Part shown: positions 8,906-10,662 of the stretch, one piece after another | How the letters are laid out: each line of letters begins with the position of its first letter | How positions within the stretch are numbered: the first letter of the stretch is position 1 | Source of the DNA: Eledone cirrhosa | Taxonomy: Eukaryota | DNA: 64,000 bases | NCBI GenBank assembly: GCA_964016885.1 | Contig: OZ024747.1 | Coordinates: 34,906,001 to 34,970,000, forward strand | Reading direction: 5' to 3' | Translations under genes and position numbers: made by a program | The notes under the pieces: generated by a model | What the model saw: only the letters and a program-made list of their open reading frames with translations | What the model was told of the DNA's origin: nothing | Databases searched by the model: none

Positions 8906-9046
8906 ATATATATATAAATATATGAATATAGACATAGAATATTCGAAAATATTCTGTATGTTTATAATAAACATTTTGAAGACCTAATCGCTATAGAATA
9001 GAATACGTCACGTATTACAATTAGATTCTCGATAAAAGCAAGGGAA

Positions 9047-9089
9047 GTAATCTACGCGTTTCATTCTTGTTAGAAATCATCAGGACTAC
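9047..9089 (-). ncRNA. Minimal type I hammerhead (array copy)
   Basis: Reverse complement of 9660-9702. Confidence 0.85.
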
Positions 9090-9356
9090 ATATCCAGTGC
9101 TTTTATCGAGAATGACACAGCTAGAGACTTATAGAATACTTAGCTGTGTACAGGAACTGGTTTGAAAGAGCGGTTGCCGGTCCGGCAGAAATTAGAAATT
9201 GGAATAAATGCTCTGAAATAGCGATATATATGTGAATATAGACATAGAATATTCGAAAATATTCTGTATGTTTATAATAAACATTTTGAAGACCTAATCG
9301 CTATAGAATAGAATACGTCACGTATTACAATTAGATTCTCGATAAAAGCAAGGGAA

Positions 9357-9399
9357 GTAATCTACGCGTTTCATTCTTGTTAGAAATCATCAGGACTAC
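9357..9399 (-). ncRNA. Minimal type I hammerhead (array copy)
   Basis: Reverse complement of 9660-9702. Confidence 0.85.
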
Positions 9400-9659
9400 A
9401 TATCCAGTGCTTTTATCGAGAATGACACAGCTAGAGACTATTCTATAGCGATTAGGTCTTCAAAATGTTTATTATAAACATACAGAATATTTTCGAATAT
9501 TCTATGTCTATATTCACATATATATCGCTATTTCAGAGCATTTATTCCAATTTCTAATTTCTGCCGGACCGGCAACCGCTCTTTCAAACCAGTTCCTGTA
9601 CACAGCTAAGTATTCTATAAGTCTCTAGCTGTGTCATTCTCGATAAAAGCACTGGATAT

Positions 9660-9702
9660 GTAGTCCTGATGATTTCTAACAAGAATGAAACGCGTAGATT
9701 AC
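9660..9702 (+). ncRNA. Minimal type I hammerhead (array copy)
   Basis: gtagtc CTGATGA t ttct-aaca-agaa t GAAA cgcg TA gattac; predicted cleavage after 9696. Confidence 0.88.
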
Positions 9703-9969
9703 TTCCCTTGCTTTTATCGAGAATCTAATTGTAATACGTGACGTATTCTATTCTATAGCGATTAGGTCTTCAAAATGTTTATTATAAACATACAGAATAT
9801 TTTCGAATATTCTATGTCTATATTCACATATATATCGCTATTTCAGAGCATTTATTCCAATTTCTAATTTCTGCCGGACCGGCAACCGCTCTTTCAAACC
9901 AGTTCCTGTACACAGCTAAGTATTCTATAAGTCTCTAGCTGTGTCATTCTCGATAAAAGCACTGGATAT

Positions 9970-10012
9970 GTAGTCCTGATGATTTCTAACAAGAATGAAA
10001 CGCGTAGATTAC
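9970..10012 (+). ncRNA. Minimal type I hammerhead (array copy)
   Basis: Identical to 9660-9702. Confidence 0.88.
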
Positions 10013-10279
10013 TTCCCTTGCTTTTATCGAGAATCTAATTGTAATACGTGACGTATTCTATTCTATAGCGATTAGGTCTTCAAAATGCTTATTATAAACA
10101 TACAGAATATTTTCGAATATTCTATGTCTATATTCACATATATATCGCTATTTCAGAGCATTTATTCCAATTTCTAATTTCTGCCGGACCGGCAACCGCT
10201 CTTTCAAACCAGTTCCTGTACACAGCTAAGTATTCTATAAGTCTCTAGCTGTGTCATTCTCGATAAAAGCACTGGATAT

Positions 10280-10322
10280 GTAGTCCTGATGATTTCTAAC
10301 AAGAATGAAACGCGTAGATTAC
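10280..10322 (+). ncRNA. Minimal type I hammerhead (array copy)
   Basis: Identical to 9660-9702. Confidence 0.88.
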
Positions 10323-10662
10323 TTCCCTTGCTTTTATCGAGAATCTAATTGTAATACGTGACGTATTCTATTCTATAGCGATTAGGTCTTCAAAATGTTT
10401 ATTATAAACATACAGAATATTTTCGAATATTCTATGTCTATATTCACATATATATCGCTATTTCAGAGCATTTATTCCAATTTATAAATATATATATATA
10501 TATATAATAAATGTAATCTGAGTTTTTCGAATATTAATAATAACATTCGATTCGTTTGCAATTATGCAAACACGCCTCAGTTTTATAGCCATGTCAGTAG
10601 AATTAACACTTTTCCTTGCTCTTGTGTTTCAGTAGCTCTGATAGTTTGGCAGGTGAACAGTG

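Follow-up and report, generated by a model that had tools for sequence, protein, structure and literature searches.

How could a non-coding 310-bp unit have been inserted as a multimer into the genome of Eledone cirrhosa, and by whose machinery? The question is raised by an array within a stretch of 64,000 nucleotides (the window), which a sequence-only reading had taken for a candidate retrozyme, made by reverse transcription rolling round a 310-nt RNA circle.

The array consists of two head-to-head arms

The 310-bp period of the unit was borne out. The five tandem copies that had been described are instead two head-to-head arms, with 8923-9439 in reverse complement. In total the array has 1.67 units on the minus strand and 3.37 on the plus strand, lies within a TA tract and is flanked by a target duplication of 11 bp, and it carries two hammerheads on minus and three consecutive ones on plus. 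With unit positions numbered from 9697, the first base past the predicted cut, the features are as follows.

8913..8923, plus strand: target-site duplication, left copy, 11 bp, in the TA-rich tract; overlaps the element by 1 nt
8923..9439, minus strand: inverted arm of 1.67 units, running from unit position 130 at its outer end (start site A) to 234 at its inner end
9047..9089, minus strand: type I hammerhead, core start 9083; cleavage predicted after 9053 by analogy with the plus copies
9357..9399, minus strand: type I hammerhead, core start 9393; cleavage predicted after 9363 by the same analogy
9438..9439, no strand: head-to-head arm junction with 2-nt microhomology
9438..10483, plus strand: direct arm of 3.37 units, running from position 52 at its inner end to 167 at its outer end (start site B)
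9660..9702, plus strand: type I hammerhead, predicted cleavage after 9696
9697..10006, plus strand: full cleavage-to-cleavage monomer between predicted sites, 310 nt, 34% GC
9755..9908, plus strand: module at positions 59-212, a candidate RT-recognition element, 74-79% identical to that of a sister retrozyme family; contains both start sites
9826..9863, plus strand: "tail" separating start site A (130-139) from start site B (165-167), given for one internal unit
9970..10012, plus strand: type I hammerhead, predicted cleavage after 10006
10280..10322, plus strand: type I hammerhead, predicted cleavage after 10316
10483..10493, plus strand: target-site duplication, right copy, 11 bp

The T>C change at 10088, re-checked on the sequence, is indeed the sole difference among the internal copies. 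The longest stop-free frame is 59 codons, read round the circle, and no ORF for a reverse transcriptase (RT) with a GIY-YIG endonuclease was found inside the unit in the mapped insertions or the monomer. The short ATG frames were dismissed as genes; by eye they are not conserved in the sister family.

Other hammerhead elements lie in the same window. One (10502-10851, core 10670, with 110-nt inverted arms) adjoins the array and has a relative at 44116. At least four further families occur at 1061-1398 and 4423-4716 and with cores at 13431, 51222, 59967 and 61073, and two of these have head-to-head arms beside TA tracts. A nearly pure (TA)n tract of 1.5 kb occupies 49481-51048.

Hammerhead and predicted RNA fold

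All five hammerhead motifs have the CTGATGA, GAAA and TA elements, a 6-bp stem I with one G.U pair and the ACGCGT palindrome, and the cleavage predicted on the plus strand after 9696, 10006 and 10316 agrees with the motif positions. The ribozyme had been called minimal; in the terms of Cervera and de la Peña (PMC4209133) it is the canonical metazoan type with a weak helix III. A U.U stands where G10.1-C11.1 is usual. The Rfam search gave no match at gathering score within the window, and for Hammerhead_HH9 the unit reached 19.2 bits (E 0.12), the cut-off being 52. Self-cleavage in this family is a prediction, against which the absent G10.1-C11.1 weighs. Of the Xenopus retrozyme dimers, one in nine cleaved in vitro (bioRxiv 2026.07.22.740005), and this also counts against the reading that we favour.

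The 16-bp helix (9636-9651 with 9709-9724) and the four hairpins reported earlier were found in the sequence. The unit folds better than every one of 100 shuffles both as a linear molecule (z -4.38) and as a circle (z -4.11), and the circle is predicted to reach -67.8 kcal/mol with 60% of its bases paired. Stem III has probability 0 in the predicted monomer circle and forms between two copies; such pairing is described for dimer-dependent metazoan hammerheads (PMC4209133).

A young and dispersed family

The family was counted by pattern matching of the hammerhead and end sequences across the 3.0-Gb assembly. The exact hammerhead pattern gave 4,177 matches and a relaxed one 18,573, with none for the reversed-pattern control, so that the dispersed copies expected of a mobile family exist in their thousands and amount to some 5.8 Mb (18,573 matches of 310 bp). 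End patterns gave similar counts, 1,389 for A and 1,299 for B, and hence at least 1,300 separate insertions.

We read 73 insertions, a few per cent of the total and all on contig 1 save that of the window. Thirteen had been picked by hammerhead matches or as the window locus, 40 for paired ends and 20 for unpaired ends; second insertions or small junction pieces at L034, L043 and L082 were removed prior to counting. Two head-to-head arms were seen in 63 of the 73, a fraction biased upward because 40 loci had been selected for paired ends. The other ten comprise six single arms, two read on the wrong side, one in an assembly gap and one with an extra junction piece. Sporadic substitutions number 70 in 188,942 bases (3.7e-4 per base), and rare variants are fixed throughout whole insertions, as with 119T>G in 16 of 16 units.

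Two fixed sites for the outer ends

The phase of the array had been described as arbitrary at start and end. This holds for the inner junction only, as the outer ends are fixed at two sites. All 58 head-to-head end pairs combine one A end (130-139) with one B end (165-167), with no AA and no BB pair. These pairs come from the 189 ends listed for the first 197 Mb of contig 1, with the partner sought within 20 kb (73 ends stayed unpaired), and the test is unbiased because either class could have paired with itself. Loci picked for unpaired ends that nevertheless show both are likewise A plus B. By eye, an older 312-nt subfamily and the 74-79% identical sister family end at homologous sites. Among 60 complete insertions, 54 have (TA)4 on both sides and 17 have duplications other than pure TA, and the window duplication, at 11 bp, exceeds 4 bp.

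The hallmarks of Penelope-like elements (PLEs) include an adjacent inverted 5'-truncated copy, a one-sided tail of 30-40 bp and (TA)n targets (PMC8557442, PMC3846280), and a purified PLE protein nicks both target strands and extends them, and it begins copying the RNA at two internal sites between which the tail lies (PMC11167929). The offset between A and B matches this tail and so points to an RT/endonuclease of the Penelope type, as do the fixed pair of start sites and the inverted arm, both overlooked in the earlier reading. Both arms appear to run antisense from the target end inwards, as expected of two target-primed cDNAs.

The same ends bear on whether the arrays could be products of assembly or library preparation, such as fold-back chimeras or a collapsed repeat. 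No contig assembled from other runs spans the whole array, and L082 appears doubled beside an assembly gap. Fold-backs, however, predict identical ends on both sides, which were never observed among the 58 pairs, and more than 1,000 distinct loci agree in their two fixed ends and have target duplications as well as haplotypes specific to each locus. Furthermore, in three of four other runs assembled, the unit was recovered as a 340-nt contig (depth 10-26, 0-1 differences), together with pieces of neighbouring repeats. We therefore give an artefact practically no credence. A tandem would yield such a contig just as a circle would, so it is not evidence for a circle; the fourth run examined, of raw Hi-C data, had 0 reads. 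Altogether 20 sequencing runs, none of RNA (17 organism codes, 16 studies), contain 76-100% of the unit's words. A near-identical unit under 17 organism codes may reflect carry-over of host DNA or horizontal spread, and we make no claim of the latter.

Arms and haplotypes point to a circular template

Of 116 arms, 105 are longer than one unit, the longest having 27 units, with no length difference between those starting at A and those starting at B (p 0.16). Inner ends are spread uniformly round the unit (chi-square p 0.59), with 1 of 126 near the cleavage site. Among 584 cleavage junctions, in a survey that would have missed larger junction deletions, 524 have the reference sequence, 55 have inherited variants and five have a single substitution. 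The 63 inner junctions show an overlap of 0-10 nt in 38 cases, 1-23 added bases in 22 and longer inserts in three. The largest junction insert is 272 bp of GC-rich foreign sequence between the arms at L036 (2599-2870).

In 52 of 53 insertions both arms have the same unit haplotype, against a random match of 0.173 for the 19 haplotypes seen. One haplotype runs through all units of each insertion, with the single exception of L059, where a variant switch in mid-arm (696-2246) separates the outer four units from the inner two and the other arm. At L133 (about 3540-4199) the arms of one insertion come, by eye, from different hammerhead families. These two cases indicate that template switches occur. 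A single haplotype per insertion implies that each move passes through a bottleneck of one unit, which is then re-amplified, a direct consequence of a circular template. Concordance of the arms would also follow from two molecules of a locally uniform pool.

Linear templates have to be weighed against this. In one version there is no circle: twin priming inserts linear read-through transcripts of arrays already in the genome, and the new arrays are homogenised later at the DNA level. A published PLE scenario does insert from tandem linear transcripts (PMC11167929), and repeated rare variants in some long arms (L035, L036, L051) suggest local duplication. Progeny arrays could then only become shorter, however. 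All units of the two inverted arms share the private variants of their insertion while sporadic ones stay confined to single units, and insertions that differ by 3.7e-4 per base are too young for homogenisation across an inversion. We regard this version as quite improbable.

In a second version PLE machinery acts on a long uniform linear concatemer, made by RNA-to-RNA rolling replication of the circle or by transcription of a monomeric DNA circle, and the RT itself does not roll. The concatemer accounts equally well for uniform haplotypes, read-through at the cleavage site and A plus B ends, and in vitro the PLE protein preferred uncleaved linear RNA (PMC11167929). On the other hand, it requires an additional, unobserved amplification step, and an RNA of 27 units would have to escape self-cleavage. 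This version seems unlikely. Rolling-circle reverse transcription of a 310-nt circle, as first proposed, is supported by arm length, junctions, haplotypes and fixed ends, evidence stronger than that of the first reading, from which we infer the events at the RNA level.

Selection on the RNA

Substitutions were classed as paired or unpaired from the predicted fold. Those that break a predicted pair or the core make up 1 of 24 inherited types as opposed to 33 of 66 sporadic ones (p 4e-5). Inherited changes within the hammerhead are located at N7 or in loop II, exchange wobble pairs in stem I, or replace the U.U with which stem II begins by A-U. Judged against this modelled fold, selection is preserving the ribozyme and the stem pairing of the RNA. 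The route through a DNA circle leaves such selection unexplained. Seven of the 24 inherited types are A>G; A-to-I editing was considered, and selection that preserves wobble pairs explains them equally well.

A sister family and Penelope-like elements

The sister family has a unit of about 318 nt and 1,510 motif matches (L105 1-470, L204-L233), and its hammerhead differs, having a U3-A8 core, while the start-site module is shared with the 310-nt family. From these sequences, ribozyme and recognition module look exchangeable between retrozyme families. The consensus fold of the shared module (positions 59-212) has weak covariation, at 3 of 35 pairs, which is too few to assert a structure. At L225/L226 (1092-1850) a 163-nt tandem of the sister family's module occurs without a hammerhead; this counts against the reading preferred here.

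Broken PLE fragments with RT/GIY-YIG similarity lie in the window at 6639-8201 (minus), 11079-11696 (plus) and 15967-16992 (minus); in Pfam, 2 of 6 window PLE fragments gave matches, all to GIY-YIG and below threshold. Genome-wide, three PLE protein queries each returned 37,000-59,000 first-look candidates. A young coding PLE has a period of 3,542 bp and an intact frame (L170 5917-8271, minus; L172-L183), for which the ORF gave no match in Pfam or to a solved structure. By eye it has the Hydra-clade motifs RWR, DKT, CxCX5C, CxxC and CxH (compare PMC8557442), and each 3,542-nt period has one U3-A8 hammerhead-like motif. Its ends fall at 3372 and at 3440-3452, one each in all six insertions in which both ends were seen, and most variants are common to both arms. 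Its tail is 68-80 nt, compared with 35-37 in the 310-nt family, and its sequence has no match to the unit. Given this, the coding PLE indicates the type of machine active here, not the identity of the partner. In the loci examined from three PLE families no terminal similarity to the unit or module was found; that no partner emerged counts against the reading we favour, as does the difference in tail length.

Could the unit then be only the pseudo-LTR (pLTR) of a coding PLE, with the arrays as truncated by-products? Xenopus retrozymes are related to PLE pLTRs (bioRxiv 2026.07.22.740005), PLE candidates in the genome number tens of thousands, and the insertions read are a few per cent of the total. 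The period, however, is 310 nt and not kilobases, and the arms of the 73 insertions are purely 310-nt units, barring a few junction inserts. Within 1.5 kb of 30 sister-family loci no PLE protein match was found with one query protein. That the unit is nothing but a pLTR is very improbable; it may nevertheless descend from one.

A model of insertion

At the level of genomic sequence the two-arm shape, the A plus B rule, the TA target, the haplotypes shared between arms, the monomer bottleneck and the selection on the fold can be regarded as established. The array belongs to a real, young and abundant retrozyme, an identity supported by the family, end and haplotype data, and we infer its RNA-level steps from DNA. 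In the proposed mechanism, arrays would be transcribed, two hammerheads, paired by way of the ACGCGU palindrome, would release a monomer of 310 nt, and a host ligase would circularise it. A PLE protein would bind the circle near positions 59-212 and nick both strands of a (TA)n target, and of the two target 3' ends one would prime at site A (130-139) and its counterpart at site B (165-167). The cDNAs would both roll round this one circle, making differing numbers of turns, and would be joined head-to-head through microhomology or a few added bases.

Collectively our data make it probable that the element is a non-autonomous non-LTR retrozyme and that a borrowed PLE RT/GIY-YIG protein inserts it, with dual target-primed reverse transcription rolling round a single RNA circle. 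A wider proposal has about an even chance of being correct: that a PLE protein, probably dimeric, starts synthesis from each nicked target strand at one of two fixed sites on a single circle produced by the ribozyme, with both cDNAs then rolling round it, that autonomous PLEs may also move as circles, and that these insertions would be a record of the whole Penelope cycle. The extension to autonomous elements is suggested by the 3,542-nt coding element of Hydra type, which obeys the same end and arm rule. As part of this proposal, the 310-nt circle would evolve under viroid-like selection between insertions. If true, dual rolling from one circle would account jointly for tandems, inverted copies and the one-sided tail, and the origin of the tandem and inverted structures of PLEs is stated to be open (PMC8557442). 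Insertion of an anole PLE in vitro did not require ribozyme cleavage (PMC11167929), which counts against our reading.

The 310-nt family yields predictions at the level of single bases, namely two start sites, one template and no stop at the cleavage site. An open mechanism becomes directly testable with an easily made 310-nt RNA, a candidate recognition module of 154 nt and the intact PLE protein encoded in this genome, and the family could also inform the insertion of RNA-templated DNA into TA repeats.

Comparison with known systems

Metazoan non-LTR retrozymes resemble this family in a non-coding tandem unit of 150-450 bp with GC below 50%, target duplications of more than 4 bp and co-occurrence with PLEs (PMC7229834; bioRxiv 2026.07.22.740005), as well as in one type I hammerhead per unit with a weak palindromic helix III and in a self-paired fold (PMC7229834). 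They are known as circular RNA, whereas the 310-nt family is known here from the genome. Rolling reverse transcription of a circle is the model proposed for them (PMC7229834; bioRxiv 2026.07.22.740005), and mobilisation through a circle by PLEs is a hypothesis without direct evidence (PMC7229834, PMC4209133). The class, the PLE link and the idea of a circular template are thus already in print, as description or hypothesis. Known retrozymes are described as head-to-tail, and the word "inverted" is absent from the main text of PMC7229834; here there are two multimeric head-to-head arms with two fixed start sites. A 2020 review states that no conserved motif indicates the mobilising element of retrozymes (PMC7761336), whereas here the PLE tail rule does indicate it.

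EN+ PLEs, especially of the Hydra clade, share the inverted 5'-truncated copy, the tail of 30-40 bp at one end, the (TA)n target, a hammerhead upstream of two internal RT starts and a target duplication near 10 bp (PMC8557442, PMC3846280, PMC11167929). The 310-nt family differs from them in having no ORF and in both arms being multimeric, and the tail asymmetry is strict here (58 of 58) where it is "often" present or "optional" in descriptions of EN+ PLEs. Non-autonomous Chlamys elements such as MRC1 are likewise PLE derivatives with multicopy head-to-tail insertions, but their 3' end is like that of their autonomous partners and they mostly lack a hammerhead (PMC8557442); here no similarity to a partner was found.

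Two-armed retrozyme insertions, a strict two-site rule and haplotype evidence from arms were not found in the openly accessible main texts searched; supplements or subscription journals may contain the family or such structures. As an object the family is of a known class, and its insertion anatomy is a variant with no description found in that literature. In L1 twin priming, two target 3' ends prime one RNA and give an inverted segment, a microhomology junction and a target-site duplication; the template there is linear, and priming occurs at its poly(A) end and at an internal site that varies. In the 310-nt family, in contrast, both start sites are fixed and both products exceed the unit in length.
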